64,000 bases of DNA, taken from positions 1,743,515-1,807,514 of the forward strand of contig OY769902.1 in NCBI GenBank assembly GCA_963669175.1, written 5' to 3'. The DNA comes from a bacterium. Lineage in GTDB: Bacteria; Electryoneota; Electryoneia; Electryoneales; Electryoneaceae. Every line of letters starts with the position of its first letter. Position 1 is the first letter of the stretch. Positions 817-61,800 of this stretch are shown piece after piece. The translations under genes and the position numbers were made by a program. The notes beneath the pieces were generated by a model. The model was not told the DNA's origin, made no database searches, and saw only the letters and a program-made list of their open reading frames with translations.

Positions 817-3513
817 CTAGAACTTGTACGTATACATCACCGAGAAGATGTAGTCATTGCGCTTATAATACGTGGGCTGAGGGATGGAATAACCACCATT
901 GATAACGGTTTCTTCCGTCATGTCAAACTTCTGACCGTTCCAGTATTCCCACTGACCATTTTCGGAGATGCTGGTAACACTCAAGTAGCCGGTAATAATA
1001 TGGTTGGGATAAAATTCATAGTCGACACCGGCTGCAAAATCAATCTGCATCATATCCACAATCTGGTATTTGATCGTGCCAGCCCTCAGCGCGGCAGCTT
1101 CCAGTGGATCCGTCGTTGTAAGGCCTGGATCTGTTTGGTTGATCAGGCTTTCACCACTGCCAATCAGTAAACGCGGACTGAAATATGGGACCAGTTTGCG
1201 GTTCAAGAACAAGAACTCAATCCTCGGCGAGAAAGTGAAGTAGTTGATGTCAGTCTCGCCGTTGCTTGCGGTCTGTTTGGCATTGGAAATCGCCAGTATA
1301 GTACGATATGGTCCGGGATACTCTGTTCCAACCTGGAATGCAAGAACAAACTGGTCGGCATCACTATCCGCCTGGTACTCATTGCTGCGATTGGACGTTA
1401 TCACGTTCAGTGAAAGCTGATGGTCAAGGTTACCGGTCTGGAGCCTGTAGGCGGCGCCAACATTGATCAGATTGTTGGTCAACGATTGACGTGTGTCAAT
1501 AATCGTCGCGGAATCAATCGGCGCATTATCGTAGGGGAAAATGGCCGTTGAATCACCATCATTTTCAAAAAGCTGGTGCCGGTAGGTCACGTTGAAATCG
1601 GGATACCGTGGATCGGTGTACAAATTCACCCCTACCATGATCTCGTTGCGATCAAGCGTCAAATCACTCTTGTCGTTCACATTGTTCTGGTAGTGAGAAT
1701 ACCCAAGGTTCAGGTACAACTTGCTGTTGAGCATGCGAATCCGGTCACGGACGTAATATCCTGCTTCGTCGTTGTACATGGAAGGATTACCCAGCGTAAT
1801 GTAGCTGGTGTTAATCTTCCTGTAGCCGATGCGCAAGTCGTTGAACAGGTAGCGTAGTCTCAGCTTGGTGTCGTAGGAAAGAGAATTGGCTATGATGGAC
1901 TTGGCAACGTCTTCAGCCTTGATCGTCGAACCTGTGCTGTCCTCAGACAGCCCATCGTCCGGCAAAGGCTGGAAATACGAGTTGATCCAGATGATGTTTT
2001 TGTAGTTTTTCAATTCACTGAAGGCTTCTTCATACGTATTGTCGTTGTAAAGCGACATCGCAACGCTGGTTGACCATACGATTCGGCGCCGGTCAAAATT
2101 CATATCCAGGTTCAAACCTGACACCACGTTGTCTTTTGGCGTTGCGCCCGTATAGGTCGTGCGGGCGTATAAACTATCAAGATTTGTTATATAGGCCAGA
2201 TCACCAGCATCCGGAAGTCGATCCAGGTATACAGAGTTCCGAACGTCTACCACTTTCATTGCAGTATAGCCGAAATCGACACGGTCCTTGAATCCCAGGT
2301 TACTCGAGATTTTCACTGCGGACAGCATACGTCGGAATGTGCCGGTGTTATTAATGGTTCTTTGCACATTATAGGACGTGTCCGGGACCACATTGGAGCT
2401 GTCAATACTCATGGTCACCGTGCGCTGCTGATAACTGAGGCCGCTAACGTGGCGGTACATCTCGCCATAAACAGCATATACATTTATCGGGCCTGGTTTA
2501 ATGGCCAGCTCGATACCGCGCACCCGGCTGCCATAAAGAACCAGTTCATTGTACTTGGGGTTCACATCACCGACACGCAGCCGCCACCATGGCATACCCA
2601 TGGAGAACAGGAAACGATGTTGCGGCTGGAGGGAAGAATGTTCCTTGCTGGTAAAACGACCCCGCGCAACAGCGTTGAATTTTCCGGCTTTGAAGGTGAT
2701 GGAGAAGGCTTCATTGCCGTAACTTAATCCTTGTTCCGAATATTGGCTTGCCACACCTTCACCGCTGACAAAACCGGTGACATATTTTCTGTACCCGGCC
2801 CGGCTTTCACGTTCCGCTGGCGATACCATGTTAAAGAACCAGGTGCTTAACACCTCCCGACCAGAATCTGTCTGGTGGAACAGGTCAATCCTGTGTCTGC
2901 CGGGTGTCATATCACTAATGACAGCAGTAAGCACTTCAGCGCTGATCATGGCTTCACCGGTTCTATCCTTACCGTCTACGTGAAGAACGATCCGCTGCGG
3001 GTCGATTTGTCCGAGAGCGTTGTTAAAAGCCAGGGCGACCAGGACTTCACTTCCCATGATGGACTTGCCCTGTTCCGGACTGATGATCAGGATCTGGGTG
3101 TTGGTGACTTCGTCGCCGGTTCCCTGGATGGATACCAGAACCGGGTTTACATCACCATTGTCCGGGTACGTAATCGTTGTCCCGTCATTGAATTCCATGG
3201 CGATGTAGTATTCCATCCCCACAGAAACAACTTCTCTACCGGGAATTGCCGCGGAGTAGGTATTCCCCGCAAGGTCCATCTCCACGTAATCGTACGATTC
3301 TTGGTCAACATTTCGGTACCACAGGTAGGCTAGCGATACCTGGTTGACATCGTAATCACCGGCCACACGGGCTTCGACATTAATGGGACGTCCCATTTCG
3401 CCGAATGTAACGGGTGAATGTTCAATGTAAACAACAGCGTTTGTGCCGGCTAATGCCATAAATGGCAGACCAATCACGCAGGCAACAAGAAAAACACGGA
3501 GAGCATACTTCAT
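817..3513 (-). CDS. large outer-membrane beta-barrel protein with N-terminal soluble domains (function unknown)
   Basis: About 900 aa. Signal peptide MKYALRVFLVACVIGLPFMALA at the ATG at 3513 (track start 3567 is TTG). Alternating hydrophobic/aromatic pattern through the C-terminal two thirds, ending in aromatic ...YTYKF as in OM barrels. No TonB box or plug recognised. Last gene of a minus-strand cluster. Confidence 0.6.
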   Translation of the reverse strand: MKYALRVFLVACVIGLPFMALAGTNAVVYIEHSPVTFGEMGRPINVEARVAGDYDVNQVSLAYLWYRNVDQESYDYVEMDLAGNTYSAAIPGREVVSVGMEYYIAMEFNDGTTITYPDNGDVNPVLVSIQGTGDEVTNTQILIISPEQGKSIMGSEVLVALAFNNALGQIDPQRIVLHVDGKDRTGEAMISAEVLTAVISDMTPGRHRIDLFHQTDSGREVLSTWFFNMVSPAERESRAGYRKYVTGFVSGEGVASQYSEQGLSYGNEAFSITFKAGKFNAVARGRFTSKEHSSLQPQHRFLFSMGMPWWRLRVGDVNPKYNELVLYGSRVRGIELAIKPGPINVYAVYGEMYRHVSGLSYQQRTVTMSIDSSNVVPDTSYNVQRTINNTGTFRRMLSAVKISSNLGFKDRVDFGYTAMKVVDVRNSVYLDRLPDAGDLAYITNLDSLYARTTYTGATPKDNVVSGLNLDMNFDRRRIVWSTSVAMSLYNDNTYEEAFSELKNYKNIIWINSYFQPLPDDGLSEDSTGSTIKAEDVAKSIIANSLSYDTKLRLRYLFNDLRIGYRKINTSYITLGNPSMYNDEAGYYVRDRIRMLNSKLYLNLGYSHYQNNVNDKSDLTLDRNEIMVGVNLYTDPRYPDFNVTYRHQLFENDGDSTAIFPYDNAPIDSATIIDTRQSLTNNLINVGAAYRLQTGNLDHQLSLNVITSNRSNEYQADSDADQFVLAFQVGTEYPGPYRTILAISNAKQTASNGETDINYFTFSPRIEFLFLNRKLVPYFSPRLLIGSGESLINQTDPGLTTTDPLEAAALRAGTIKYQIVDMMQIDFAAGVDYEFYPNHIITGYLSVTSISENGQWEYWNGQKFDMTEETVINGGYSIPQPTYYKRNDYIFSVMYTYKF

Positions 3514-3689
3514 GCGGCGCCCCTGGTATAGTTCGTGGTTCCTTCCGGTCCCTCCCTCAGAATTCAAATGTAGAGTGTTGGCAGAAGCAACCTCAACATT
3601 ATCAGGAGACCCCGAACAGAAAATACAGCCCGCCGGCCTTGCCGGCGGGCTACAGGAAGTCCGTAAAACTCAACTTGGTTTACAACTGA

Positions 3690-4385
3690 TCAATCGGTCT
3701 GTTGGTATTGAATGATCAACGTCTTACGTTGCCCATTCTCGTCCTGAAGTTCGATTTCAATGTAGTCCGTCGAACCCTCATCGTTTACCTCGGGCACGGA
3801 GCCCTGATCGGCGCCTCCGGTTTCCATGTTGCCGTCCGGATCGACGGTTCCCATGAAACCAGGTCCGATTTCCGACTCCTGACCTGTCTGAATATTCAGC
3901 AGGCTTACGAGACCTTCCAGGGTGATCTGGAGAGTGGTGCCATCCGGTTCAACGATGACCCAGAACTGGGTGCCTTTGACCGACGCGACTGCGGTCGGGG
4001 TAGCCACTTCCATGGCGCCCTTCTGCTGGGCCACGTTTGCAAACAACTCACCCACTTCCATGTTGACACGTTTCGAAAGCGAATAGTCATCGTTACGTGT
4101 CGCAGTTACTGTAATTTCAGTATTGGGTCGAATTTTTATCTGGGTTTTGTCATCAGTAAATACCATGGATACGAAGCCGTCCGCACCGGTCCGCACCATG
4201 TGACCGTCGTCAAGGACTTCGCCGAAATTCAGCTTGGTCCAACCCTGACCACGGTTTACTTCAGTTTTGCCTTGAACGACGGTAACTACTGCAATCGCCT
4301 TGGCGCCATCCGCCATCGCACATACCGCAAGCAGGAATACCAGCAGAATGGCGAACGCTGCGGTTCCGAATCTATGCGTTCTCAT
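3690..4385 (-). CDS. FecR-domain protein, periplasmic (signal peptide, no anti-sigma N-domain)
   Basis: 231 aa. N-terminal signal peptide (AAFAILLVFLLAVCAMA). Beta-rich FecR-like core with GTQFWV motif. RBS AGGAGAAAG upstream of the ATG. The antisense ORF 3702..4472 is R/C/H-rich and implausible. Confidence 0.5.
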   Translation of the reverse strand: MRTHRFGTAAFAILLVFLLAVCAMADGAKAIAVVTVVQGKTEVNRGQGWTKLNFGEVLDDGHMVRTGADGFVSMVFTDDKTQIKIRPNTEITVTATRNDDYSLSKRVNMEVGELFANVAQQKGAMEVATPTAVASVKGTQFWVIVEPDGTTLQITLEGLVSLLNIQTGQESEIGPGFMGTVDPDGNMETGGADQGSVPEVNDEGSTDYIEIELQDENGQRKTLIIQYQQTD

Positions 4386-4406
4386 GGTTCTTTCTCCTGT
4401 TTGCGC

Positions 4407-5606
4407 CTATTCCGCAATGATTACGTTTTCAACATCAAAACCTGCGCCGAGCATCAGGTTTGTCAGTTCTGAGATTGAACGTCCGCTGACCCCGCCGAAA
4501 GAGATGGTGGAAGGGGAATAGCCGGACAATTGGTTTACGATATACGCGTACTGTTCCGGTGAAAGTTTGTTGCTCAGAATATCCAGCAACTGATTCATCA
4601 TCGGATCCATGCCAGGCTCATTGCCTGCTGCACGATGACCACTACCACCCATACCAACAAAGGTAAACTCGCCTGGAGCGCTTCGGAACGTACGGAAGCC
4701 GCCGGGGATAACAGTCGGCGCCTGCATTTCAACCATCCAGGCATACCGTCTTCCCCTGATCAGCGGACTTTCACCCATTCCCGTACCGAGGAAGAAATGG
4801 TGATCGTACGTTTGAGGATGACCGGCAAACTTGGTCTGGCTGGCATCCTGTGAACGCTGCAAAATGACATCCATCGGGTCCATATTTTCCTGGCCGGGCT
4901 GGAACTCGACGATGTACAGCATAACCTGGTCCGGGGATACCGGTGCGCCGGTCCAGGTCCAGTTGAACTCCACAGTCGGTGATGTGATATCATCGTACGG
5001 CACGGGGTTCATGGGGATGGGGCGCGAAGGATTGTATACCTGGATCGTTGCCAGGTAATGACCATCCGGCGAGACCATGCCATTGAAATCACCAGGACGA
5101 AGTTCCACACCCAGCATATACACCGATGCCGCCAGGTTCAGACCATCAATAAGGTCTGCAAACTCAGCCGGGGATGCGGTCTGGCTGTGATCACCGTCCC
5201 TGCGCATAAAGGCAAGGTCGTTGCTCCACTGGTTGTTGTACAACCTGCCACCGGGTACGTTATCTGCCCACTGGCCAAGTGCAAACGGACGGCTGGCATA
5301 CTCAATGATTCTTCCGTGTCCGGCTACTTCAAGGTATACGTAGAGCACATAATCGTCATCGCGTTCTGCATCAGTGATTCCTGAGATCTGGATATACATG
5401 ATCGGTGGAATATCACCGAAATCCCAGTCTTCACCCTGCTCCAAAGCGTTCACATCAACAACGTCCCCAATCGGAAATATCTGGGGCGTTATGCCGTATT
5501 GAGCCTGCTGTGTGAAGCCGCTGGAGACGTAGAAGGCGTTTGCCTGTAACGGCAGGATCAACAAACCCGCCAGCACAAACAACCCACACAACTCTCTCCA
5601 CTTCAT
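4407..5606 (-). CDS. secreted hypothetical protein
   Basis: Signal peptide MKWRELCGLFVLAGLLILPLQANA starts at the ATG at 5606, preceded by AGGAGG. 21-bp gap to the downstream FecR-domain gene. No recognisable catalytic motif. Confidence 0.5.
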   Translation of the reverse strand: MKWRELCGLFVLAGLLILPLQANAFYVSSGFTQQAQYGITPQIFPIGDVVDVNALEQGEDWDFGDIPPIMYIQISGITDAERDDDYVLYVYLEVAGHGRIIEYASRPFALGQWADNVPGGRLYNNQWSNDLAFMRRDGDHSQTASPAEFADLIDGLNLAASVYMLGVELRPGDFNGMVSPDGHYLATIQVYNPSRPIPMNPVPYDDITSPTVEFNWTWTGAPVSPDQVMLYIVEFQPGQENMDPMDVILQRSQDASQTKFAGHPQTYDHHFFLGTGMGESPLIRGRRYAWMVEMQAPTVIPGGFRTFRSAPGEFTFVGMGGSGHRAAGNEPGMDPMMNQLLDILSNKLSPEQYAYIVNQLSGYSPSTISFGGVSGRSISELTNLMLGAGFDVENVIIAE

Positions 5607-5771
5607 GGTGGACCTCCTGTAAACTGTTTCAAGCCAATGGTTCGCACCACGGGCAGAGCTTTTCGATGACACTATCCCTCATCTAATAAACTACGAACGA
5701 ACCATGTGGGAATTGTGCCCAGTATCACTCTTTTTTTAAAAAGAGAAACCTGAATGGAGTCTCAAAGAGTA

Positions 5772-6908
5772 TCAATTTTTTCTACGACCTGATCCTTTCT
5801 TTTTAACTCTATTTAAAAACTCTGATATGCCATGATCTTGATAATATTTCCATGCTTTTCGATATCCTTTGCCATAAGCCGGATCATCATTTTCTTCAAG
5901 CTGATCCAAATGATAGTCTGCGAGTTTACTGTGAATGGATTCCAGCATAATTCGCATGGCTACATTTGCCGAGCCTTCCCGCCAGTCGGCATGGCCGCCG
6001 TCCGCATCATTCTCGTGTTGCCAGACATGAAAAAGCTCATGTGCGGCAACACCGGATAACATATCACGCGGGAGACCATAAAGAAAATAGATTGTTGTAT
6101 CTTCACGAATAACTCTTCCATTCATTGTCTCCGAGTGAACCGAGTGCAGCCCATTGGCATCACCTTCGCCGCCATGCAATTCATGTAATTGATTTTTATC
6201 AACAAGGACGATGCTGATGTCATCCAGGCTGGTGTTGAATCGGATACCGTTGGCTTCCAGCACCGCAGCGGCTTCACGGACAATCTGAGCAGCCTTCCCG
6301 GCGTCGGTGACTTCCGTTTCACGGCAGACTTCACACTGAATACGTCCATCCGCCAATTTCCAGGCGTGTCCCGGCAGAGCAAAACGTCCGCAAGAATCAC
6401 ATAATTCAACCTGGTCCTTATACTCGGCGCTGATCGTGGTTCCCCACCAGTCCGTTACATAGGGACCGAGAATAGGCTGGCCGGTGATAGCGCAAATCGG
6501 GGCAAGGTTCTCTACATAACACGATTCATGATACACCTTGCCATCAATGGTGAAGTATTTGTCCGATACAGGTGCGCCACACCATTCACAACGCGGCGAG
6601 AACTCATGGTGATAACAATCGGGGTGATAAAATTTGCCCTTGTGTTCGATATAGCTGCCATCGATACGAAACCCGCAGGCGGCGCATTTGAAGCATTCCG
6701 GATGAAAGTATTTGCCATTGGCTTCGATGTACTGGCTGGTGATTACTTTACCGCATCCGGCACAGCGTACCCTCTGTGCCAGGGCATGGGTCGGTAATAC
6801 AATCAAGCCAACTGCAGCCGGTGTCACCACACGAACAAATCGCCTGCGATCCCACTTTTCGGCATCGGCTCGACATGTTCTCTCTGTGCTGTTCTTTTTG
6901 CAAGCCAT
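5772..6908 (-). CDS. LIM-type double zinc-finger protein fused to an HExxH zinc metallopeptidase (DA1-like architecture), Tat-like signal
   Basis: N-terminus has an RRRF twin-arginine-like motif followed by a hydrophobic stretch and ALA-Q. Then C-x2-C-x16-H-x2-C-x2-C-x2-C-x19-C-x2-H, which fits the LIM consensus, followed by a second C-x2-C-x16-H-x2-C unit and CDSC...CEVC. C-terminal region carries HELFH (HExxH). Confidence 0.6.
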   Translation of the reverse strand: MACKKNSTERTCRADAEKWDRRRFVRVVTPAAVGLIVLPTHALAQRVRCAGCGKVITSQYIEANGKYFHPECFKCAACGFRIDGSYIEHKGKFYHPDCYHHEFSPRCEWCGAPVSDKYFTIDGKVYHESCYVENLAPICAITGQPILGPYVTDWWGTTISAEYKDQVELCDSCGRFALPGHAWKLADGRIQCEVCRETEVTDAGKAAQIVREAAAVLEANGIRFNTSLDDISIVLVDKNQLHELHGGEGDANGLHSVHSETMNGRVIREDTTIYFLYGLPRDMLSGVAAHELFHVWQHENDADGGHADWREGSANVAMRIMLESIHSKLADYHLDQLEENDDPAYGKGYRKAWKYYQDHGISEFLNRVKKKGSGRRKN

Positions 6909-7019
6909 AATCTATTAATATACTCTAACCTGACTTCAGAAGAAAAGCGAGGTGATTTTCTCTCGACGAAGCTGTTGTAAAGGGAATAAGCAGTTCGCGA
7001 AAGTTCTTGTTGAGTGGAA

Positions 7020-7634
7020 AGCAATCAGCCTGCTTCAGCAGGCTCTTTTTAGCACCCGGCTGAAGCCCTGTCTCTTGCTCACATCTTCGTGTTTCTGCCA
7101 CCCCAGAGGGGGTGGTATATTTTAGTGTAGGGTTGACGCTGTCTGTTTAGCGTCTACCCTACGAAAAAGATCAAACCTTATCTCAACCCTGGAAGGGTTG
7201 CATAACGTATAATTTACACCCAATTGGTTTGTATAGAATATAAAATGCGTTATTTCCTGTATTTATTGAACGTACTAATATGAATCGCGTATTATGCAAC
7301 CCTTCCAGGGTTGATTATTCGTTAGAATACCTGACATAGTGTACAGGCCAAACAGACGGCCTGTACACTATGCTAAAATAGGGAATCCCGCCGGGATTCT
7401 AAAAATGCTATGTCCACAACTCTTTTACTGATACAGCTTTCAGAAGATGTGAGTAAGAGACAGGGCTTTAGCCGGGTGGATTAGTGTAACTAAATAAAAG
7501 AGCGCGCTTTAGCGTGCTTGCTTGAACAACAGATTGCTGTTTTGGAAAGCACCCTGAAGGGCGCTCGATATAGTTGTTATCTTTGTCCCCCGGCTAAAGC
7601 CGGGGGCTAAGGGGAGCAGGCTAAAGCCTGCTAA
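7020..7634. mobile_element. composite MITE-like element (repeat family A, long copy) with nested inverted repeats
   Basis: Termini agcctgcttcagcaggct-ctttttag-cacccggctgaagcc (left) and cccccggctaaagccggggg-ctaagggg-agcaggctaaagcctgct (right) are inverted relative to each other. The same termini bound the 210-bp copy at 40126..40336. An internal segment at 7497..7585 matches the reverse complement of 40195..40275. Further nested IR pairs at 7050-7095/7425-7475 and 7190-7215/7285-7310. Confidence 0.5.
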
Positions 7635-7855
7635 TACTAATGGATAGAACCCCCTTGAGGCGAATACTTATGGATAGAATTCCCTTGAGATAGTAAACGG
7701 AAAGAAGCGCTTTTCAGAAACTGTGATAGAAGACAGATGTTTCGGCGAGAATAACTTTCGCTAATCTGAAGCCGCAAGAACTTCCGAGAATACCATACGT
7801 GGAACATATCCATTGTGACACGGTACAAGTTTCAGGACGAAAACAGGCTGGATTC

Positions 7856-9808
7856 ATGCGTAACGATAGATATACATATTTGTTGATTATTTCCCTGCTG
7901 GCTTTCTCCTTTTTCCCACTGGAGAAATCAATAGCACAATCCCGCAATGTTGTGGTTCCTCGATCCCAGCAGACAGAAGAAATCCGTCAGGAAGCGACCA
8001 GGAAAAGCCGTACCGCTACCAGGCTTGAGCAAAGAGGGCAAATCGACGAGGCGTTGGCAATCTGGGATTTACTGGCGGACCAATTTCCCGACAACAGCTC
8101 CTATTTTGAAGGGCAGGTGCGTTGCCTGACCACGTTGGCCAGGTATAATGAAGCTGCAAGGTTACTGGAAGAGCGGATACCGCTGGAGATAGACCAGCGC
8201 CAGAAAGCGGAATACCTGGTGCGGCTTGGCGGGGTGTACCAGAAACTGAACAAACCGACCCAGGCCGAGGTCAATTACCGTCAGGCCGAGGAGACCGCTC
8301 GAGGGGTGGAAGGCGCTTATCATGCGGTGGCCATGGAGTTTCTGCGTCAACGTCAAACAGAGCGGGCGATTAGCATTTTAAAGTCTTCGCGAGTTGATCT
8401 CGAGAACCCCTATTTGCACGCGTTTACCATCGCATCCCTGAAACAGAATACCATGGACTGGGCCGGAGCGACCGAAGAATACCTGTTGGCGCTCCAGGAA
8501 AGCGGCACACGCAGGCAATCCGTCCTGCGGTCTTTTGCCACTTTCCCCAACGATCCGAATACGGATAAAGCTGTTGAGGCCAGCATTCGTGCGGAGCTGG
8601 ACCGTACCGAGAAGGAGCAGCCCTGGCCCGGGTATCGAGACGCTCTGTGGCAAATCCTGATCGATCAACGGATCAAGAGCGGCAATTTTGAAGGCGCTGT
8701 GGATCTGCTGGAAACAATCCAGGAGGAAGAGGGCGAAGAGGGCTGGCTGCTTCAGTTCGCCCAGACAGCCGTAGACGAAGGCGCGCACGATGCTGCCAGA
8801 CGTGCGCTGGAGATAGCAGCGCAACGCACGCAAAGTGAAAATCGACGCGCTGAAGTTGATCTTGCCCTGGCGACCCTGGTGCAAGCAGAAGGCGATTTCT
8901 CGCAGGCGGACAGTTTGTATGGCACTGTTATCGGAAGGCTGGAGAAGAATCCTACCCTGGCTTATTCAGCCCTGATCCGGCGTGGACAGATGCGATTGAC
9001 GTATGTCGATAATCCATTGGGGGCGTTGGAAGATTTCGAACACCTTGCCGAATTGCAGGGTAAGCAGGTGGAGCAACAGGTTGAGTACCTGCTGGCTGCC
9101 ACACTGCTTCGTCTGCACCGGTATGATGAAGCGCGTCCACATCTGCAACAGACGATTTCGCCCCAACTTCCTGACGAGCCTCAGCGCGGAAGAAGACGTC
9201 CAAGGCAACCGGTTGCCTACGATGCCGGACTGGGCGCTCATGCCGCGTATCTGAATGCACGGTTATCATGGTGGGAGAACAACCCGGAACGAACAACCGC
9301 TATCCTCGATAGCATGCTGAAGCATCCCACCGGCGCAGAAGTGGAAAACGAAGCGTTTGACCTGCTTTTCCTGCTGAGCAGTAAAGCGGATTCAAGTATT
9401 CTCCGTCGATTTGCACAAACAGACCAGGCATTGTTTGAACAACGAGTAGAAGATGCGGAGAACATGCTCGCGTCCATTGCTACGGACACCGCATCATCCT
9501 TGTCCGCAAACGCTTCCTGGTGGCTGGTGGAAATCGCTGTGCAGACCGGGGCGGAGGATGTCCCGGAAGTTGTTGACGCTTATGTCACGCAGTATCCGGG
9601 CACCCCGCGTGCAGAAGAGGCATGGCTGAACCTGGGAATCTGGTATGAGGATCAGGGCTTGACTGATGAAGCGAAAACCTGCTATGAAACGATACTTATC
9701 GACTATTATGACGGCCTGCTGACCTCGGAGGCACGATTGCGCCTGGATCAACTGGCGGGAATGGAACTGCCGCCCCTGCAACCACCTTCGCCTTTTGAGA
9801 CGCCGTAG
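7856..9808 (+). CDS. tetratricopeptide-repeat (TPR) protein with N-terminal signal/anchor
   Basis: ATG at 7856 gives MRNDRYTYLLIISLLAFSFFPLEKSIA (signal-like). The rest is alpha-helical with repeated A/L/Y/E-rich 34-residue periodicity typical of TPR arrays. Track start 7799 is GTG. Confidence 0.6.
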   Translation: MRNDRYTYLLIISLLAFSFFPLEKSIAQSRNVVVPRSQQTEEIRQEATRKSRTATRLEQRGQIDEALAIWDLLADQFPDNSSYFEGQVRCLTTLARYNEAARLLEERIPLEIDQRQKAEYLVRLGGVYQKLNKPTQAEVNYRQAEETARGVEGAYHAVAMEFLRQRQTERAISILKSSRVDLENPYLHAFTIASLKQNTMDWAGATEEYLLALQESGTRRQSVLRSFATFPNDPNTDKAVEASIRAELDRTEKEQPWPGYRDALWQILIDQRIKSGNFEGAVDLLETIQEEEGEEGWLLQFAQTAVDEGAHDAARRALEIAAQRTQSENRRAEVDLALATLVQAEGDFSQADSLYGTVIGRLEKNPTLAYSALIRRGQMRLTYVDNPLGALEDFEHLAELQGKQVEQQVEYLLAATLLRLHRYDEARPHLQQTISPQLPDEPQRGRRRPRQPVAYDAGLGAHAAYLNARLSWWENNPERTTAILDSMLKHPTGAEVENEAFDLLFLLSSKADSSILRRFAQTDQALFEQRVEDAENMLASIATDTASSLSANASWWLVEIAVQTGAEDVPEVVDAYVTQYPGTPRAEEAWLNLGIWYEDQGLTDEAKTCYETILIDYYDGLLTSEARLRLDQLAGMELPPLQPPSPFETP

Positions 9809-12305: not shown

Positions 12306-14015
12306 TCATCCCTTTTTCTGAATCTTTGCCCAGGAATCGCGCAGGGTGACGGTCCGGTTATAAATGACATGGTCCGGCGTGGAATTCTTATCCATGCAGA
12401 AATAGCCTTTGCGCTCGAACTGGCAACGGAAGCCCGGTTCCTCTTCGCCCAGTGAGGGTTCCAGCTTGCAACCGTTCAGAACCTGTACGCTGTCGGGATT
12501 GATCGCTTGCTTGAAGCTGACGCCATCGCTCTCATCCATCGGGTTGGACTTGGTGAACAGGCTTTCATACAAGCGCACTTCAGCGTCAACCGCATGTTTC
12601 GCCGATACCCAGTGCAGTGTCGCTTTTACCTTGCGGCCATCGGGAGAGTTGCCGCCGCGTGATGCCGGATCATAGGTGCAGCGCAGTTCAACGATATTCC
12701 CCGCATCATCCTTCACCACCTCGTTGCAGGTCACGAAATAGGCGTAACGCAAACGAACCTCACGTCCCGGCGCCAGGCGGAAGAACTTCTTGGGCGGATC
12801 TTCCATGAAGTCATCACGTTCGATGTAAAGTTCACGGCTGAATGGCACCTTGCGCATTCCGGTATCCGGATCTTCCGGGTTGTTCACACTATCCATCTCC
12901 TCAACCAGGTCTTCCGGGTAGTTGGTGATGACGACCTTGAGCGGATCGAGAACCGCCATACGTCTCAACGCGCGTTTGTTCAAATCTTCACGGATGGCAA
13001 ACTCGAGCTGAGAAAATTCAACCGTACTGTTCCGCTTGGCGACACCGATCATATCACAGAAATTCCGGATGGATTCCGGGGTGTAGCCACGACGCCGCAG
13101 GCCGGAAAGGGTCGGCATGCGTGGATCATCCCAGCCGCTCACGATGCCTTCACGCACCAGCTCCAGCAGGCGACGTTTGCTCATGACAGTATAGGTCAGG
13201 TTCAGACGCGCGAATTCGTACTGATGTACTCGGGGTTCTTCGAAAAGCTGATCGAGGAACCAATCGTACACCTCACGGTTGTTCTCGAATTCCAGAGTGC
13301 AGATGGAATGAGAAATGCCTTCGATGTAGTCAGACATGCAGTGGGCATAATCATACATCGGGTAAATGCACCACTTGTCCCCGGTCCGGTGATGGGCAGT
13401 GTGACGAATGCGATACATCAACGGGTCACGCATTTTCATATTGGGGTTTGCCATGTCAATTTTTGCGCGAAGCGTTTTTTCACCGTCCTTGAATTCACCG
13501 TTACGCATCCGTTCGAACAGGTCCAGGTTTTCCTCAACGCTACGATCACGATAAGGACTGTCCTCACCGGCCTGCTTCACGGTGCCGCGAGTTGCACGAA
13601 TCTCCTCTTCCGTCAAGTCGCAGACATATGCTTTCCCCACTTCAATCAACTGCACCGCATAGTTGTACAGTTTTTCAAAGTAGTCCGACGCAAAATGAAG
13701 ACGATCACCCCAAGTGTAGCCCAGCCACTTGATGTCTTCCTGGATCATGTCTACGTAAAGTGTCTCTTCGGTCAGCGGATTGGTATCGTCAAATCGGAGA
13801 TGCGTGATTCCGCCAAAATCCTCGGCAACGCCAAAGTTCAAGACGATGGATTTCGCATGGCCGATATGAAGGAAACCATTCGGTTCCGGAGGAAACCGGG
13901 TCTCGATCTGACGGTTGTACGTATTGTTCCGAATGTGTTCGCGGATGATCTCACGGACAAAATCGGTATTCTCGGAAGATTGTGTTGCAGCTTCGTTGTT
14001 CGCTTTATCTGACAT
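12306..14015 (-). CDS. glnS: glutamine--tRNA ligase
   Basis: HIGH motif ([16 protein letters not shown]) and KMSKS-type motif (VMSKR). Near-colinear with E. coli GlnRS over its full length ([43 protein letters not shown]). ATG at 14015; track start 14033 is GTG. Confidence 0.93.
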
Positions 14016-14245
14016 GGTCAATCTCGCTCTCACATCGTCATGTTACAGCTTTTCTTTACCGGACTTTTCCGGGCAATTTGTTGACTGGAAGGTACAGGAA
14101 ATCTACGAAGCGGGAAACCCCTTGGAAACATGTTCGGCTTGTCCGGTTCTCTTCAAGAACGGGTTCTTCATAGTGATAAAAAGTGAAGCCAAATGCAGAA
14201 CACCTCTTCCTATGGTTCAATCGTCATCTTATAATTCAGCATATG

Positions 14246-14480
14246 GTACATTGTATGGTTGAAAGCAAAGAGATGGAAAAAGGGGACTGCCTCCTTTCCC
14301 TGGAGTAAAACTATCCCACTGTGAACATGGACCGGGAAAGGTGGCTGTACCCTTTTCCTTGCGAGCAGGCAAGTAGTCCATGGAAAAGGGTACAGTTTCC
14401 TTTTCTGCAAGTTCAGCGAGAGTGTTTTGTGCGAGCATGAAGAAAAGGATTCCGTCCCCTTTTCCTGACAGCATGTCTAT
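14246..14480. repeat. repeat family B, copy 1 (about 235-bp hairpin-rich element)
   Basis: Shares roughly 80-90% identity with 35414..35663 and 44698..44962. Built from four imperfect palindromic modules of GGAAAAGG...CCTTTTCC type. Short ORFs inside differ in length between copies. Confidence 0.6.
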
Positions 14481-14552
14481 AATTCCATAATGACTGAACT
14501 TAATCAAGGAAAGCCATTTTAATACTTGCATGAATCGGACAAAGGAGTCTGT

Positions 14553-15452
14553 ATGGGCAACCGTCCCGTTGTCTTCGGTGAAATTCTAATGGACGTCTTC
14601 CCTGATGGTCAGGCTATCCCGGGAGGCGCTCCGTTTAACGTGGCCTGTCACCTTGCCGCGTTCGGAGCAGATCCGCTCTTCATCAGCGCCGTGGGAAATG
14701 ATGACCATGGTCGTCAACTTCTCCAACTGATGGAAAGCAATCGAATGGATATCTCCGGAATTCAGATATCAGATACCCATCCAACGGGAACAGTCGCTGT
14801 TGCCATAAGGAACAACGAACCGGAATACACGATCCAGACCGAAGTGGCCTGGGATTTTATTGAACCTTCACACCAACTACTGGAACAGGCGACTTCATCT
14901 GGCAACATCCTGGTATTTGGAACCCTTGCCCAACGGTCTGTCGTTTCAAGGAATTCCCTGCAGCGATTACTTGCCGATTCAAGCATGCTGTCGCTTGTCG
15001 ATTTGAACCTTCGGCAGCCTTTTATTGCTGAAGAAGTCATCAAGGACAGCTTGAAGCGTGCATCTTTTGTCAAGCTGAATCGTGCTGAACTGGGGAGAGT
15101 AACCGGACATGTCAGCAGATCAGAGCATGACCTTATTCAGGATGCTCGTGAGCTGGTCAACCGTTACCGGAGCGACGCCCTGTGGGTCACTTGCGGCGAG
15201 GAAGGTAGCTGGTATATCGGCAAAAACGGTGATGTTGAACATTATCACGAAACCAGGAATGAGAATATCGCTGATACAGTTGGCGCTGGCGATGCCTATA
15301 CCGCAGTCCTGGTGCTTGCATATATAAACGGATGGAATACCGGCATTACCCTGAAGCGAGCGCATCGCTTTGCTGCGGCAATTTGCAGTGTTCGTGGCGC
15401 GCTTCCGGCCGATCACGAGTTCTATTCGCCCTGGATAAGGGAATGGAAATAG
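14553..15452 (+). CDS. PfkB-family carbohydrate kinase (fructokinase/ribokinase-like)
   Basis: N-terminal VVFGEILMD...GGAPFNVA and C-terminal DTVGAGDAYTA (PfkB signature). RBS AAAGGAG 5 nt upstream of the ATG at 14553. Confidence 0.75.
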   Translation: MGNRPVVFGEILMDVFPDGQAIPGGAPFNVACHLAAFGADPLFISAVGNDDHGRQLLQLMESNRMDISGIQISDTHPTGTVAVAIRNNEPEYTIQTEVAWDFIEPSHQLLEQATSSGNILVFGTLAQRSVVSRNSLQRLLADSSMLSLVDLNLRQPFIAEEVIKDSLKRASFVKLNRAELGRVTGHVSRSEHDLIQDARELVNRYRSDALWVTCGEEGSWYIGKNGDVEHYHETRNENIADTVGAGDAYTAVLVLAYINGWNTGITLKRAHRFAAAICSVRGALPADHEFYSPWIREWK

Positions 15453-15591
15453 GGCGAAAACGTGACAGAACACGATTGGAGCAATCCCGGTTTTTGTTTG
15501 GAAAACACAGATTGATAAAATCTCTTGTTGTAAGCAGCAGCAACAGGTTGTAAACTATGTGTTCACATTGTACCCAGGGGAGGGGATTAGT

Positions 15592-16308
15592 ATGAACCTG
15601 TCAGACTTGCAGTCGCAACAACCTGTAATTACCCGTGAACAAGCGGAAGTTCAGATCAGGGCATTCATCAACAAGGTTTACGGCTGGATGGCGCTTGCCC
15701 TGATTCTGACGGGATTTGTCGCGTGGTGGGTGGCGAATGATTTGGCGCTGGCACGTTTTATCGCCAGCAACAACTTCATCTTTTACGGTTTGTTGATCGG
15801 CACTCTTCTGATGGTGGGCGCGTTGTCCGGTTGGGTTCACCGGATGTCGCCGGTTACCGCGATTGCTGTATTTATGGGCTATTCGGCGTTGAATGGCGTA
15901 CTATTGAGTTTCATCTTCCTCGTTTATACGAAAGAATCGATTGCCTCCACATTTTTTATTACCGCAGGCACTTTTGCCGTGATGAGCGTGTACGGGTTTG
16001 TCACCAAAACAGACCTCACCCGCATCGGAAACCTGTTGTTCATGGCCCTGCTTGGATTTCTACTTGCCAGCCTTGCCAATATCTTCTTCCACAGCGAAAC
16101 ATTGTACTGGGTGACTACCTATGCAGGTATCCTGATCTTTGTCGGTTTAGTGGCTTATGACACCCAACGGTTGAAGATGATGGCGTTGGGTACTGTCAAT
16201 GATGAAGACATGATGACCCGGGCATCGGTTATCGGTGCGTTGCGGCTGTACCTGGATTTCATTAATCTGTTCCTGTTGCTGCTTCGTATTTTCGGACGGC
16301 GGCGGTAG
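15592..16308 (+). CDS. Bax inhibitor-1/YccA (TMBIM) family membrane protein
   Basis: Seven hydrophobic segments. Conserved ...LVAYDTQRL... motif near the C-terminus. RBS GGGGAGGGG before the ATG at 15592. Confidence 0.8.
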   Translation: MNLSDLQSQQPVITREQAEVQIRAFINKVYGWMALALILTGFVAWWVANDLALARFIASNNFIFYGLLIGTLLMVGALSGWVHRMSPVTAIAVFMGYSALNGVLLSFIFLVYTKESIASTFFITAGTFAVMSVYGFVTKTDLTRIGNLLFMALLGFLLASLANIFFHSETLYWVTTYAGILIFVGLVAYDTQRLKMMALGTVNDEDMMTRASVIGALRLYLDFINLFLLLLRIFGRRR

Positions 16309-16384
16309 TGAAACGATCCTACTAAATCGGTCTACGTTGGAAGCTTTACGTCGTCAGGTCACACGCATGAAAATCGTATGCGCA

Positions 16385-16564
16385 AGACCTGACGAAACTG
16401 GCGCTGCATTAGACCTGACGAATCTGGCGCTGCATTAGACCTGATGAAACTGGCGCTGAATTAGACCTGATGAAACTGGTGCTGCATTAGACCTGACGAA
16501 ACTGGCATGGAGTAGACCTGACGAAACTGGCGCTGCATTAGACCTGACGAAACTGGCATGGAGT
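16385..16564. repeat. tandem array, 7 copies of a 25/26-bp unit (agacctgacgaaactggcgctgcatt)
   Basis: Seven head-to-tail units with a few substitutions; two units end in ggcatggagt. No spacers, so not CRISPR. Lies between the BI-1 gene and a small OMP gene. Confidence 0.85.
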
Positions 16565-32996: not shown

Positions 32997-33804
32997 GGTT
33001 GTACTGTTTCCGTTAGCCTGATCAATGTTTAGCGAAAATAAATAATGTAGAGGAGCCTATGATACAAGGCAAGAGGTCAAAAATATTACGTCCCCCGGAT
33101 GAAAAAAGGATCAATCATTCATCCGGTTGAAAATACGCGTTTTGACATGTCGTCCCGTACGGCAAGTTCCTGTCGTCGCATGGGGGGTTAGGGAAATCTA
33201 ATCTCCCTTACTGCAATATGTAACTTAAATATGGGTGCCTCACAATCTTGTGTGTGTATACTATATAGGGCACAAACGCCAAGTGAGTATTCAAGTGACC
33301 CACCTTCGGTGGACATGGATGAAACCTGATCAAACTTTCTGTATTCTTGTTGACTATGGTTGTTTGCCCCGCACGAAACGGCGAGGCACCCCAAAATGAA
33401 TGTTCAAATCATGAGTGAGGTTTGTGGCAGGTATCCTGATCATCATGCTGCTGACAGGGACTTCCTGTTTACAAGATGCTCCTCAAATCCAGTAGTCGTG
33501 AAGGTTTTAGCACGGGGTAACTTGGCTCTCCTGTAATTAGCCTATTCCTCGCGAGACAAACTCTTGATAAGGCAAAAATTGAATATTGTCTTCGTAATTG
33601 TCTATTATTGAATATAGTATCGAAATTCATAATCGGGGATGTAAGATCTCAGCAAACATCTGGTTCTGCCTACTCCAACCTTCCTGAATTGCTCGCCTAT
33701 TGTTTGCATTGTAGATCTACAAGTCTTTAAACTTATAAATACATATGTTAGGAACGGGAAGAGCAACTTTGTCACATTTTTCACAAAGCAGTACAGGAGG
33801 GAGC

Positions 33805-35253
33805 ATGAGATCAGGATGCCTTGTTTTGTTTATCCTTGTCTTTGCATTCGTGATGATCGGGTGTGAAGGGGAGGTTGGGCCCCAGGGACCGGCAGGTCCG
33901 GAAGGCCCGGAAGGAGCGCAAGGCCCGGCGGGTGAAGATGGGCAGGATGGGCAGGGTGTGTATGAGTTTACCTACCTAGGCAATGGTGGCGAAGACTGTA
34001 TGCACTGCCACATGACAACGGTTTCCAACTGGAGCGGCACCAAGCATTACGAAGCTTACGCGGACCTGGATTCGGAAAGTAAGGAAAATCCGTATTGCGT
34101 GAAGTGCCACGTTACCGGTTGGGACAGCGAAGTCGCGTATGGTGATACCGTCATCAATGTATACGGTCCCGATACGACTGGTTTTGATGATTACTGGATG
34201 GTAGAGACCGATGAGGCGGAAGAGCGTCGCATGGCCTTGGCTGGTGTGCAGTGTGAGGCTTGTCACGGTGGCATGGGACCAGACTTCAACGCACATCGTC
34301 CCAATATCAGTTTTGCCACTCATAACGATGAGGATGGTGAATCCTTATCCCTTTGTTCGCCTTGTCACAGCACCCAGTTGAATGAATGGGTGGAATCCGG
34401 GCATGCGGCTGTGCAGGCTTCGTTGACGCCGGAACAGTTTACAGATGAATTCGGACGTTCATCATGCAACCCCTGCCATACCTCGGAAGGTTTCCTTGCC
34501 GCCAATGACCCGGCGTATGCGACCTATGAGTTTGATGAACTGCAATCCTACATCGGTTGTGTGACCTGTCATGATCCGCACTCCAACACCTACGAAGCCC
34601 AGGTGCGCACGGTAGGTGCGGTTGAGACGGTGTACCATCCCGGTTATGAAGATGGCGACCCGGAAGTGGCGACCATGGACGGGTACGGTGTCGGCCAGGT
34701 TTGTGCGCAGTGCCACCACGGACGGCGTGATGCGGACAACGTTGACAGCCAGATTGCAGACGGCTACGCTCACTTCGGTCCGCACGGTTCCCCGCAGATG
34801 GACACCTACATCGGTACCGGTTGTTACGAGATCGAGGACTTCGTCTATGAAGGCAGCCATGCACATCAGTCGATCAGCAACGGCTGCGTAAGCTGTCACA
34901 TGGAACGTGAAGCGATTATCCATGGCGAGCTCCAGGATCACTCGTTCCATTCTTTCACACCGGATGCGGATAACTGCCTGCCCTGCCACAGCATCGAAGA
35001 TTTCGATTACAACGGTGTCCAGACCGAGGTCATGGACAAACTGGATCAATTGGCCCAGGCGCTCGGCTACACAGATCGTGATGATTTCGAAGCCAACTTC
35101 GACAGCCAGGCGGATGGAGTTACCGCTGATGAACGTATGATTGCCTACGCAATGGTGTTCATTCTGAACGATGGCAGCTATGGTGTGCACAATCCTACGT
35201 ACGTGATGGATCTGCTGGACAACGCGATTTCCTATTCGGCAACACTGCCGTAA
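33805..35253 (+). CDS. lipoprotein with collagen-like GXY repeat fused to a nine-heme c-type cytochrome
   Basis: RBS AGGAGGG before ATG 33805. Lipobox VMIGC. Ten consecutive GXY triplets (GEVGPQGPAGPEGPEGAQGPAGEDGQDGQG). Nine CxxCH motifs (CMHCH, CVKCH, CEACH, CSPCH, CNPCH, CVTCH, CAQCH, CVSCH, CLPCH). Confidence 0.75.
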   Translation: MRSGCLVLFILVFAFVMIGCEGEVGPQGPAGPEGPEGAQGPAGEDGQDGQGVYEFTYLGNGGEDCMHCHMTTVSNWSGTKHYEAYADLDSESKENPYCVKCHVTGWDSEVAYGDTVINVYGPDTTGFDDYWMVETDEAEERRMALAGVQCEACHGGMGPDFNAHRPNISFATHNDEDGESLSLCSPCHSTQLNEWVESGHAAVQASLTPEQFTDEFGRSSCNPCHTSEGFLAANDPAYATYEFDELQSYIGCVTCHDPHSNTYEAQVRTVGAVETVYHPGYEDGDPEVATMDGYGVGQVCAQCHHGRRDADNVDSQIADGYAHFGPHGSPQMDTYIGTGCYEIEDFVYEGSHAHQSISNGCVSCHMEREAIIHGELQDHSFHSFTPDADNCLPCHSIEDFDYNGVQTEVMDKLDQLAQALGYTDRDDFEANFDSQADGVTADERMIAYAMVFILNDGSYGVHNPTYVMDLLDNAISYSATLP

Positions 35254-40065: not shown

Positions 40066-40125
40066 GATCCGCTCACCATCATCCTGTTCATATATGGTGG
40101 TTCTTCTGTTCCAGCTGATTCGAAT

Positions 40126-40336
40126 AGCAATCAGCCTGCTTCAGCAGGCTCTTCTTAGCACCCGGCTTCAGTCGGGGTGTTCATGGTGACAAAGAAATGA
40201 CGAGCGCCCTTCAGGGTGCTTTCCTGAATCAGGACTTGTACAAGGCAAGCACGCTAAAGCGCGCTCAGAATGATCTCCGCATCTTTACACCCCGGCTGAA
40301 GCCGGGTGCTAAAAAGAGCAGGCTAAAGCCTGCTAA
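40126..40336. mobile_element. MITE-like element (repeat family A, short copy) with terminal inverted repeats
   Basis: Left end agcctgcttcagcaggct-cttcttag-cacccggcttcagtcggggtg. Right end caccccggctgaagccgggtg-ctaaaaag-agcaggctaaagcctgct. Together these form a roughly 45-bp TIR around a 110-bp core. Termini match those of 7020..7634. Confidence 0.55.
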
Positions 40337-43185: not shown

Positions 43186-44664
43186 TTGATATACTCGGTT
43201 TTGTTGAATTACTCAGGTCTTGCAAAAAGTAAAAGGCATGGTTCATTTTACAACCAAGAAGACGCCAAATCTCTTCAGTTGTAAAGGAGATAACCATGCC
43301 TGTCATAACATCGTCATTTTTTGAGTTACTTGCAAGTTTTCGTCCGGTGTTTCGGAAGCCTGTTTATGAGAATTTTGTACTGTTGGCTATCGGCGCTGTA
43401 TTGAATTTCGGTCGTCAGACAGTCTGTCAGTTATTACGTGTATTTCCCGGACCGGTAGCGAAGAGTTGGTCTTGTTATCACCATTTTCTTTCGTCTGCCA
43501 ACTGGTCCGCCCTGAAACTGGCAAAGATTCTCTGCTCTTTGATACTTGATCAGATTGCCGAACGTGATCCGATCCTTCTGATCGTGGATGATACCCTGAT
43601 CCGTCGTTGGGGAAAGCATGTTTACCAGATATCCGTTCACCGCGATCCCGTCCGTTCGGGCAAAGCAGGGACAAAAGTCGTTTATGCTCGCGGTCTTCAA
43701 TGGATGGTGATTTCGATTGGTTTGCGCACCCGTTATCGTTCGCAGATCTGGGCGCTTCCTGTATTCGTGTTTCCGGAGATCGCCAAAAAGCGTGTTCCGG
43801 AATCGAAGTACCGCAGTCCTGTACACCTGATCATTCTCGGGGCGCGTCTGCTGCTTCGATGGTTCCCGGACCGCCGTTTCCTTATCCTTGCCGACGGTAC
43901 GTTGAACTCCCACGAACTTCACCGTTTCGTGGCGAAAGAGAACCGTCTTGCTATCATCGGGCATTCGCGTATGGATACGGTGCTGCATGATCCGCCGCCT
44001 CCACCGAACGGGAAACGTGGACGTCCGCGCAAAGTCGGTGACCGTTTGCCCGCACCGGGACAAGAGGCGAAAAAGCCGGATGCTGCCTGGGAAAAAGCGT
44101 CTTGCCTCTGGTATGGGAACAAGACAAAAGACCTGTTGCTGCTTTCCGGTGTTGGCTGCTGGTACCGTTCCGGGGAAGATGTTGTCCTGATACGCTGGGT
44201 GGTGGCGCGTGATCCCGACGGCAAAAACAAGGACATTGTCTTATCTACATCCAAAACAGACTTAACCCCGGCCCAGGTTGTCAGCTCATATGTACGACGA
44301 TGGGCGTTGGAAACCACGTTTGAAGAGTCACGGAAACATCTGCGTATCGAAACGACAGAAAACTGGTCAAAAAAATCGATTCAAAGAACAGTGCCCCTGC
44401 TGTTTGGCTTGTTCAGTCTGATGGTTGTTTGGTATAGTCAGCAGCCAGAGCAGAAAGCTGTTGCGCAAACAGAGTGGTACACAAAACTGGAACCCAGTTT
44501 CTCAGACGTGCATCAGGCATTGCGTGCTGAATTGTGGATGCAGGCGATTTTTCCCGAATGCAAGCAGCCACGCGGATTCTTAAAAAAGAAAAGCAATATC
44601 CTTAAATTCCTTATTCACAAAGCCGCTTGATCCGCTAAAATGAGCAAAACCGAGTGATATAGTT
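43186..44664 (+). mobile_element. insertion sequence (IS4/IS701-superfamily), apparently intact
   Basis: Single transposase ORF flanked by imperfect terminal inverted repeats tgatatactcggttttg (43188..43204) and caaaaccgagtgatata (44646..44662), which share an 11-bp perfect core. Confidence 0.6.
43296..44630 (+). CDS. DDE transposase (IS4/IS701 superfamily)
   Basis: Candidate catalytic residues in LIVDDT and ILADG, and the Y-x2-R-x3-E-x6-K signature in YVRRWALETTFEESRKHL. 444 aa. Confidence 0.75.
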   Translation: MPVITSSFFELLASFRPVFRKPVYENFVLLAIGAVLNFGRQTVCQLLRVFPGPVAKSWSCYHHFLSSANWSALKLAKILCSLILDQIAERDPILLIVDDTLIRRWGKHVYQISVHRDPVRSGKAGTKVVYARGLQWMVISIGLRTRYRSQIWALPVFVFPEIAKKRVPESKYRSPVHLIILGARLLLRWFPDRRFLILADGTLNSHELHRFVAKENRLAIIGHSRMDTVLHDPPPPPNGKRGRPRKVGDRLPAPGQEAKKPDAAWEKASCLWYGNKTKDLLLLSGVGCWYRSGEDVVLIRWVVARDPDGKNKDIVLSTSKTDLTPAQVVSSYVRRWALETTFEESRKHLRIETTENWSKKSIQRTVPLLFGLFSLMVVWYSQQPEQKAVAQTEWYTKLEPSFSDVHQALRAELWMQAIFPECKQPRGFLKKKSNILKFLIHKAA

Positions 44665-44697: not shown

Positions 44698-44962
44698 GAG
44701 ATCCACTGTATGGTTAATGGTTAGAGGAAAGGAAATGGAAAAAGGGGACTGCCTCCTTTCCCCGGGGTAAAGCCTTCCCGCTGTGAAAATGGACCGGGAA
44801 AGGTGGCTGTACCTTTTTTCTTGAGAACAGGCTGGAATTATACGGAAAAGGGGATAGCTTCCTTTCCCACGAGTTCAGCTAGCGTTTTTTGTGTGAGTGC
44901 GAGGAAAAGGATTCCGTCTCCTTTTCCCGACAATCTCATCACAACGGAATAAAATCGAGAAT
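44698..44962. repeat. repeat family B, copy 3
   Basis: Directly right of the IS. Aligned with copies at 14246 and 35414. Confidence 0.6.
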
Positions 44963-61733: not shown

Positions 61734-61755
61734 AGAGATGGCTTCTGTAAAGCAA

Positions 61756-61800
61756 TCCACTAGTGGATCATAGCAGGTGCAATGATCCACTAAATCGATA
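61756..61800. promoter_or_regulatory. conserved bipartite palindromic motif (copy 1)
   Basis: aatCCACTAGTGGATCA-n15-TCCACTAA. Contains the perfect palindrome CCACTAGTGG. A near-identical motif lies at 62993..63040. Confidence 0.4.

Follow-up and report, generated by a model that had tools for sequence, protein, structure and literature searches.

A conserved outer-membrane barrel module with a stand-alone FecR-domain protein, usually encoded beside a CHASE2 cyclase

Gene set and conserved gene order

We analyzed a 64-kb stretch of bacterial DNA from contig OY769902.1 (the window, below), in which four consecutive minus-strand genes encode a LIM/DA1-like zinc metallopeptidase, a secreted protein that we call orphan-400 (p400), a stand-alone FecR-domain protein and a large outer-membrane barrel, with a gene for a secreted tetratricopeptide-repeat (TPR) protein lying divergently to them (Table 1). 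A sequence-only reading had earlier labelled the four as an uncharacterised envelope module, and the label was borne out. The open reading frames (ORFs) are present, intact and arranged head to tail, and since each has homologues at 30 to 80% identity in other genomes, they represent real genes. The proposed content of a LIM/peptidase, a FecR and a roughly 900-residue barrel protein agreed with the Pfam scan and with the predicted structure (the barrel protein has 898 residues), and the export signals reported for all four could be read from the sequences, each N-terminus running from charged through hydrophobic residues to an AxA-like site. Gene products of exactly 898, 399, 231 and 378 amino acids are on record as called; these lengths fix the starts of the barrel and orphan-400 genes at nt 3513 and nt 5606, respectively, in agreement with the homologues. 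The spacings of 100, 21 and 122 bp given earlier hold for the longest ORFs only; with the called starts they become 165, 21 and 176 bp, so that the 21-bp value alone stands. No cysteine occurs in the mature orphan-400, FecR and barrel proteins; the LIM protein contains 14. Scans of the window for Rfam families and tRNAs gave no matches.

Table 1. Genes, protein regions and DNA elements at the locus (positions in the window)
Feature	Position (nt)	Strand	Details
LIM + DA1-like zinc metallopeptidase gene	5772-6908	minus	378 aa
Peptidase signal peptide with RRRF motif	6825-6848	minus	
Cys-rich LIM/LIM-like zinc modules	6324-6764	minus	residues 49-195
DA1-like peptidase region	5802-6224	minus	
HELFH motif	6027-6041	minus	residues 290-294; E311 16 residues past motif
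Orphan-400 (p400) gene	4407-5606	minus	longest ORF to 5672; 399 aa from M23
Stand-alone FecR-domain gene	3690-4385	minus	231 aa
Terminator-like hairpin between FecR and barrel genes	3624-3654	minus	14-bp stem, 10 G-C pairs, T-rich tail
Outer-membrane barrel gene	817-3513	minus	longest ORF to 3567; 898 aa from M19
Barrel signal peptide	3445-3513	minus	MKYALRVFLVACVIGLPFMALA
Predicted periplasmic beta-sandwich domain 1	3124-3432	minus	residues 46-148; AlphaFold2 model
Predicted periplasmic beta-sandwich domain 2	2824-3093	minus	residues 159-248; AlphaFold2 model
Predicted ~26-strand beta-barrel	820-2781	minus	residues 263-915; AlphaFold2 model; C-terminus YTYKF
Intrinsic-terminator-like hairpin	745-774	minus	13-bp stem then TTTTTTGATTT; 43 bp past barrel stop codon
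Secreted TPR gene, divergent to module	7799-9808	plus	ORF 669 aa; likely start M20 = nt 7856
MITE-like insertion	7053-7478		426 bp; 36-nt terminal inverted repeats 7053-7088 / 7443-7478
Nested perfect 23-nt inverted repeat in MITE-like insertion	7183-7205 / 7292-7314		
Hairpin in MITE-like insertion	7335-7372		

Gene order proved to be strongly conserved when the neighbourhood was compared across related loci (labelled L001 to L027; protein homologues carry P-numbers), of which L008 to L016 came from a scan of species-representative genomes, with gene order mapped by tblastn. The order orphan-400, FecR, barrel was kept in every related locus fetched except in one rearranged genome, where the genes lie in two places, and orphan-400 was always directly upstream of the FecR gene. 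In L001, L002, L004, L009, L010, L011 and L013 these three genes are followed on the same strand by a gene for a protein with CHASE2 and Guanylate_cyc domains, the first product having about 415 residues in L002 and L004. The same order, cyclase included, was found at the distant loci L018, L019, L023, L024 and L025, whose barrels are 23 to 28% identical to that of the window; the orphan was recognisably homologous at four of these five. Counting L008, the cyclase gene comes directly after the barrel gene at 13 of the 16 independent loci, with gaps down to 9 to 17 bp, and the exceptions are the window, L005 and L016. L005 is the closest relative (barrel 63% and FecR 80% identical to the window proteins), and L016 is a cyclase-less second copy in a metagenome-assembled genome that also holds the complete locus L011. 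These data do not support the four-gene unit of the sequence-only reading: the core consists of orphan-400, FecR and barrel plus the CHASE2 cyclase, and the LIM peptidase belongs to it in one clade only.

That clade comprises the window, L005, L001 and L026, where the LIM peptidase stands beside orphan-400 and FecR; a distant member of the peptidase family (L027) is located away from the module. L001 and L005 share the order TPR (divergent), LIM, ~400-residue protein, FecR and barrel, and in L001 the CHASE2 cyclase also follows the barrel. The rearranged genome is that of Ca. Electryonea clarkiae (phylum Electryoneota, FCB group), with LIM, orphan-400 and FecR at L026 and barrel and CHASE2 at L008. 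At L008, two small ORFs (8590-9200), a toxin-antitoxin-like pair by eye only, occupy the usual place of FecR, and a 1218-residue ORF at 12741-16397 has two CHASE2-like regions, the result of either a tandem duplication or the fusion of two gene calls. A divergent TPR homologue adjoins the module in L001, L004, L005, L009 and L013 (29 to 57% identity). The TPR gene is thus a recurrent partner of the module, which the sequence-only reading had overlooked. At L019 (9182-10750), L020 (6515-8044) and L024 (8194-9771), the CHASE2 cyclase is followed by a response regulator fused to PglZ (alkaline-phosphatase-like); in that lineage, the pathway may include this protein as another conserved component.

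Barrel, FecR, orphan-400 and LIM proteins

The barrel is a member of an unannotated outer-membrane family that has no Pfam model. The protein matched no Pfam or NCBIfam family and gave no Plug, TonB_dep_Rec or STN match at E <= 0.1, and a Pfam scan of ten members of the family likewise returned none. Word-indexed searches with the barrel, either alone or as a 40-sequence profile, recovered the same five proteins only (four relatives), whereas an exhaustive profile search found 2421 representatives (clustered at 50% identity) at E <= 1e-3 and 421 at E <= 1e-30; its seeming rarity is therefore an artefact of the search method. The best 150 homologues mostly have 800 to 950 residues (median 857) and signal-peptide-like starts, and a C-terminal Phe is present in 105 of the 153 proteins of the working set, almost all of which came from the exhaustive search. 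None of the proteins retrieved fuses the barrel to FecR or orphan-400.

An AlphaFold2 model built on a 40-sequence alignment reached a predicted local distance difference test score (pLDDT) of 82 and a predicted template modelling score (pTM) of 0.70, with the barrel part mostly above 85 pLDDT; an earlier run on five sequences (pLDDT 52.8) was set aside. The modelled barrel has 26 long antiparallel strands and, together with the signal peptide and the aromatic C-terminal beta-signal YTYKF, shows the features of an outer-membrane barrel. Short turns alternate with long loops, and the two N-terminal beta-sandwich domains are therefore probably periplasmic. MtrB was the closest whole-fold match, with identities of 8 to 9% to MtrB and LptD, and the fold matches overall were generic, at 5 to 12% identity. 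Structures of TonB-dependent receptors aligned with the model over 243 to 330 residues only, also at 5 to 12% identity. The mature N-terminus leads directly into strand 1 of the first beta-sandwich (conserved I-x-H-x-P-V) with no free extension, and profile searches with Plug (PF07715), PF00593 and STN were negative, in agreement with the earlier claim that neither plug nor TonB box is recognisable in the barrel.

The most conserved stretch of the barrel family, residues 313 to 353 (nt ~2509-2631; LQPQxR...GDxNPxYNELxLxGxRVRGxE), covers strands 4 to 6 and the loop between and has a high content of charged residues; a place on the lumen wall or a role in partner binding is possible. We also noted four giant proteins of 3000 to 4000 residues (P0038, P0056, P0087 and P0122) that contain 18 to 20 tandem copies matching the first beta-sandwich of the barrel, a domain without a Pfam model, along with beta-helix, PKD and Big_7 domains.

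The FecR protein is the most conserved component, with 80% identity to its L005 counterpart and 34 to 49% to the others (alignment A5). Its FecR domain (PF04773, 47.8 bits against a cut-off of 24) spans residues 64 to 160 of 231 (nt 3906-4196) and is preceded by a Sec-type signal peptide and followed by a conserved, beta-hairpin-like C-terminal tail. As the sequence-only reading had remarked, it has no anti-sigma domain and no membrane anchor: a cleavable-looking signal peptide is its only such segment, no helix follows, and all homologues are alike in this respect. It is 29% identical to the N-terminus of NsrA of Sinorhizobium meliloti (E 2e-12), and its best sequence match in the PDB is MtxA (4z29; E 2e-4, ~70 residues). 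A sub-threshold NCBIfam resemblance was seen to the Leptospira FecR-domain surface proteins Lsa33 and LipL45. E. coli FecR (G181-T182) and FoxR (G191-T192) cleave themselves at a Gly-Thr bond (PMC9249621), and in a weak profile alignment G181-T182 of FecR falls on an invariant Gly138-Thr139 of the window protein (nt 3969-3974). To judge from this alignment, the window protein may cleave itself at the same place.

Orphan-400 carries a Sec signal peptide and two conserved regions, and a Gly-rich linker that varies in length precedes its C-terminal domain of about 70 residues (alignment A3). Its profile matched nothing in Pfam or among PDB sequences, and no similarity to the N-terminal domains of the barrel was detected. 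The TPR protein matches many TPR families and has the signal peptide MRNDRYTYLLIISLLAFSFFPLEKSIAQ.

In the 378-residue protein, Pfam recognized LIM (PF00412, 49 bits, cut-off 22.9) and DA1-like (PF12315, 48.2 bits, cut-off 25) domains. It contains six CxxC/H pairs, LIM structures are matched in the PDB, and the zinc modules are joined to an HExxH...E metallopeptidase. LIM is a zinc-finger module best known from the cytoplasm and nuclei of eukaryotes, here found in a bacterial envelope. In the bacterial family that combines LIM with DA1-like (38 clusters), nearly every member begins with a signal peptide or lipoprotein-like signal (P0154 to P0189), which argues that this architecture works outside the cytoplasm in bacteria. 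A clear RRR motif is confined to the window protein and its homologue in L005, P0161 having an RR pair and the other members ordinary signal peptides, and given this restriction twin-arginine (Tat) export of the LIM peptidase is a weak possibility only. Earlier notice of LIM-peptidases in prokaryotes is confined to comparative work (Burroughs et al. 2011, cited in PMC5322733).

The sequence-only reading had envisaged a single operon. This is doubtful here on sequence grounds, as a terminator-like hairpin between the FecR and barrel genes is followed by a promoter-like TTGAGG-N17-TACATT. Both are kept in L005, where base changes preserve the stem, and the barrel probably has its own promoter in this clade. 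In other lineages the module genes are spaced 9 to 90 bp apart. A second putative terminator, 43 bp past the barrel stop codon, closes the unit.

Upstream of the peptidase gene lies an element resembling a miniature inverted-repeat transposable element (MITE). Its presence had been reported correctly, at a distance of about 110 bp; the distance from the start codon is 145 bp. It is short and non-coding (no ORF of at least 80 codons inside), and its terminal inverted repeats are 94% complementary (0 expected by chance). An insertion fits the spacing between the TPR and LIM genes, which is 890 bp in the window (6909-7798) and 155 bp in L005. The element is single-copy within the window, no autonomous partner was found, and no target-site duplication can be read because the flanks are palindromic hairpins. 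The full repeat arm had no metagenome match; a 19-nt core of it gave 19 metagenome matches, mostly inside phage-like genes and therefore probably due to chance. The hairpin-rich flanks (7003-7061 and 7500-7635) recur at 40108-40336 with 76 to 88% identity over 56 to 141 nt and are built of short GGCTnnAGCC-type palindromes, so the 426-bp element seems to have landed inside a palindrome repeat cluster. The only insertion sequence in the window (43193-44655; DDE_5 transposase ORF 43296-44630, 18-nt inverted ends ACTCGGTTTTG) has ends unrelated to those of the MITE-like element, and an imperfect inverted-repeat block lies past it at 44738-44938. Elsewhere, the window encodes a 502-residue multihaem c-type cytochrome (33745-35253) and, at 59208-62830, a Cache/HAMP chemoreceptor with an HD_5 (HD-GYP-type) protein next in line; in L001 and L004, the module is flanked by HD_5 genes as well.

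A possible signalling role and its alternatives

We propose that orphan-400, the FecR protein, the barrel and the divergent TPR protein form the envelope-spanning input part of a signalling system whose usual output is a CHASE2 class III adenylate/guanylate cyclase in the inner membrane, and we give this proposal a slightly better than even chance. It is based on gene order, domain content, predicted fold and literature precedent, from which we infer all physical interactions and the direction of signalling. The ~26-strand barrel would span the outer membrane, and its two N-terminal beta-sandwich domains would extend into the periplasm. MtrB holds MtrA, and LptD holds LptE, in the lumen; in a barrel this wide a partner protein is therefore to be expected as well, and by analogy the FecR protein, orphan-400 or both could fill the barrel or dock on it. 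Through this assembly the cell surface would be connected with the periplasmic CHASE2 domain, and synthesis of cAMP or cGMP would thereby be controlled with no TonB and no sigma factor involved. The TPR protein would serve as a periplasmic scaffold. In this clade, the exported zinc peptidase may add a step of regulated proteolysis, and the FecR-domain protein may cleave itself at the invariant Gly-Thr.

Several observations weigh against this proposal. No ORF for a CHASE2 protein or class III cyclase was found in the 64-kb window by tblastn and profiles over all ORFs, and no cyclase is encoded within ~7 kb downstream of the barrel in L005. The next minus-strand gene past the window barrel, beyond the strong terminator-like hairpin, encodes an unrelated alpha/beta hydrolase. 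Here the cyclase must be encoded elsewhere, or the module is uncoupled from a cyclase; the split loci in Electryonea and the extra copy L016 indicate that separation of the components is tolerated. The window is thus a weaker exemplar of the module, its cyclase not being adjacent. In S. meliloti, moreover, SMc02177 (FecR), SMc02178 (periplasmic) and SMb20495 (TPR) are targets of cAMP-Clr and dispensable for perception (PMC5498481), so such proteins can be outputs and not inputs. Comparison of the window barrel with the NsrA barrel by hhalign and hmmsearch --max detected no homology. Finally, the suggested partner in the lumen and the periplasmic placement of the N-terminal domains derive from strand counting and analogy.

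The CHASE2 sensor domain is widespread in bacterial cyclases, kinases and diguanylate cyclases, and the signal that it senses is essentially unknown. The one studied case, NsrA, shows the signal getting to the cyclase via an outer-membrane protein. A different barrel family that is almost always encoded with a stand-alone FecR protein, orphan-400 and a CHASE2 cyclase turns this into a testable four-protein problem in many phyla. In a broader version, which we put forward tentatively and think rather unlikely, the trio would be a general input for CHASE2 receptors: a small partner threaded through or plugging the barrel would carry surface events (ligand, damage or proteolysis) to CHASE2 independently of TonB, with clade-specific tuning by the LIM peptidase and by self-cleavage of FecR at Gly-Thr. 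If true, this would explain why the literature consulted reports no ligand of a CHASE2 domain, as PMC5192318 states outright, and the barrels would amount to a new family of outer-membrane proteins, thousands strong.

Alternatively, the module could be an effector that displays or releases a surface protein. The barrel would export orphan-400 or anchor it on the surface of the cell, the FecR protein would plug the barrel or retain its cargo, the LIM/DA1 peptidase would release it in the way that LapG releases LapA, and the cyclase of the relatives would regulate or report the process. The N-terminal half of the FecR protein weakly matches the LapA-type retention module (NCBIfam NF033682, E 0.0017) and the retention region of a Marinomonas ice-binding adhesin (5ix9, E 0.015), but these matches lie under every curated threshold, and the neighbourhoods contain no type I secretion, TolC-like, LapD-like or LapG-like gene. 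Display would suit MtrB as best fold match, which encloses another protein, as well as the variable Gly-rich linker of orphan-400, typical of tethered surface proteins, the recurrence of the first barrel domain 18 to 20 times in giant surface-type proteins, and the FecR and TPR proteins of S. meliloti that are outputs of cAMP (PMC5498481). It accounts poorly for the distribution of the genes, however, since the peptidase is absent from most loci and the cyclase is nearly always present, and we regard display or release as unlikely.

Less probable again is that the barrel is a channel, or a pore for uptake, that serves a large substrate without TonB and works with periplasmic binding proteins; the module would then be merely co-regulated with the cyclase of the relatives and play no signalling part of its own. 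The window and L005 keep the module intact without an adjacent cyclase, at 80% (FecR) and 63% (barrel) identity, as such a pore would allow. Yet conservation of neighbours extends only to the cyclase, the TPR gene and, in one clade, the peptidase, with no conserved adjacent transporter, ATP-binding cassette or catabolic genes; FecR domains are known from signalling contexts, and the fold matches are all generic. A degenerate FecIRA-type signalling system or TonB-dependent transducer is very improbable and largely refuted by the unmatched Plug, TonB_dep_Rec and STN domains (Pfam), ~26 strands in place of 22, two beta-sandwich domains where a plug would be, the partial TonB-receptor alignments, a FecR protein without anti-sigma domain or membrane anchor, and the lack of an ECF (extracytoplasmic function) sigma factor among the neighbours in the window or any related locus. 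The sequence-only reading, which had set the module apart from FecIRA and TonB-dependent uptake, was right in this negative interpretation, neither of the outcomes that it named as refuting it having come about, and missed the positive identity, for which we favor the signalling input described above.

Comparison with known systems

We found no published description of this barrel family, of orphan-400 or of the LIM peptidase of the module. The closest studied system is NsrA, encoded on pSymB of S. meliloti immediately upstream of the CHASE2 cyclase gene cyaK. In its 1190 residues this protein combines an export signal, a FecR domain and TPR repeats, and it ends in a barrel. When a plant protein is sensed through NsrA, the CHASE2 cyclases of S. 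meliloti increase cAMP; within the NsrA/CyaK/CyaD1/CyaD2/Clr system, NsrA is needed for their response to the external protein signal (PMC13001267, PMC7529298). The window also encodes FecR, TPR and barrel proteins, but in three genes rather than in one fusion protein. NsrA has no orphan-400 or LIM-peptidase partner, and cyaK adjoins nsrA, whereas the cyclase is not adjacent in the window. Homology between the two barrels was considered and rejected, as profile comparisons found nothing; without detectable sequence homology, the parallel is one of logic, not of descent.

Partnership between FecR and CHASE2 was already known from NsrA and other precedents. The gene next after mtxA encodes a CHASE2 adenylate cyclase (PMC4439547), and the product of mtxA in magnetotactic bacteria (PDB 4z29) is secreted and has an N-terminal domain (Pfam MtxA_N) that matches the window FecR protein. 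The match is weak (E 2e-4 over ~70 residues), no barrel has been described with MtxA, and its function is unsettled. In the Burkholderia "BiofilmReg" operon and a gene pair of P. aeruginosa PAO1, the gene of a secreted LysM-FecR protein is immediately upstream of that of a CHASE2 sensor (PMC5192318); there a histidine kinase serves as output, LysM is part of the FecR protein, and barrel, orphan-400 and TPR genes are absent. A CHASE2 adenylate cyclase gene cluster of Campylobacterota, known from comparative genomics only, also holds a phosphodiesterase, with no orphan-400 or LIM peptidase reported; it resembles the module in its published description.

The architecture of the LIM peptidase follows the plan of plant DA1, in which LIM and LIM-like zinc modules precede a clan MA HExxH...E peptidase with the active site HEMMHx15EE (PMC5322733), to which HELFH and E311 of the window protein come close. 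Plant DA1 has ubiquitin-interaction motifs; the bacterial protein has no Pfam match to such a motif and is exported. As for the barrel, MtrB (with MtrA and MtrC) and LptD (with LptE) are 26-strand barrels that enclose a partner. The window module comes without haem proteins or lipopolysaccharide-transport genes, and the likeness is a structural analogy only.

With FecA-FecR-FecI of E. coli, and with FoxR, PupR and FpvR in Pseudomonas, the module shares a periplasmic FecR domain paired with an outer-membrane barrel; in E. coli FecR, this domain binds the periplasmic part of FecA (PMC5498481). Unlike these systems, the window has no anti-sigma domain, membrane helix, ECF sigma factor, TonB box, plug or STN domain, and the output is a sigma factor in FecA-FecR-FecI and a cyclase in the relatives of the window module. 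The regular association of the barrel family with a stand-alone FecR protein, orphan-400 and a CHASE2 cyclase also suggests that FecR domains serve generally as adaptors between outer membrane and periplasm and not only as parts of anti-sigma factors.

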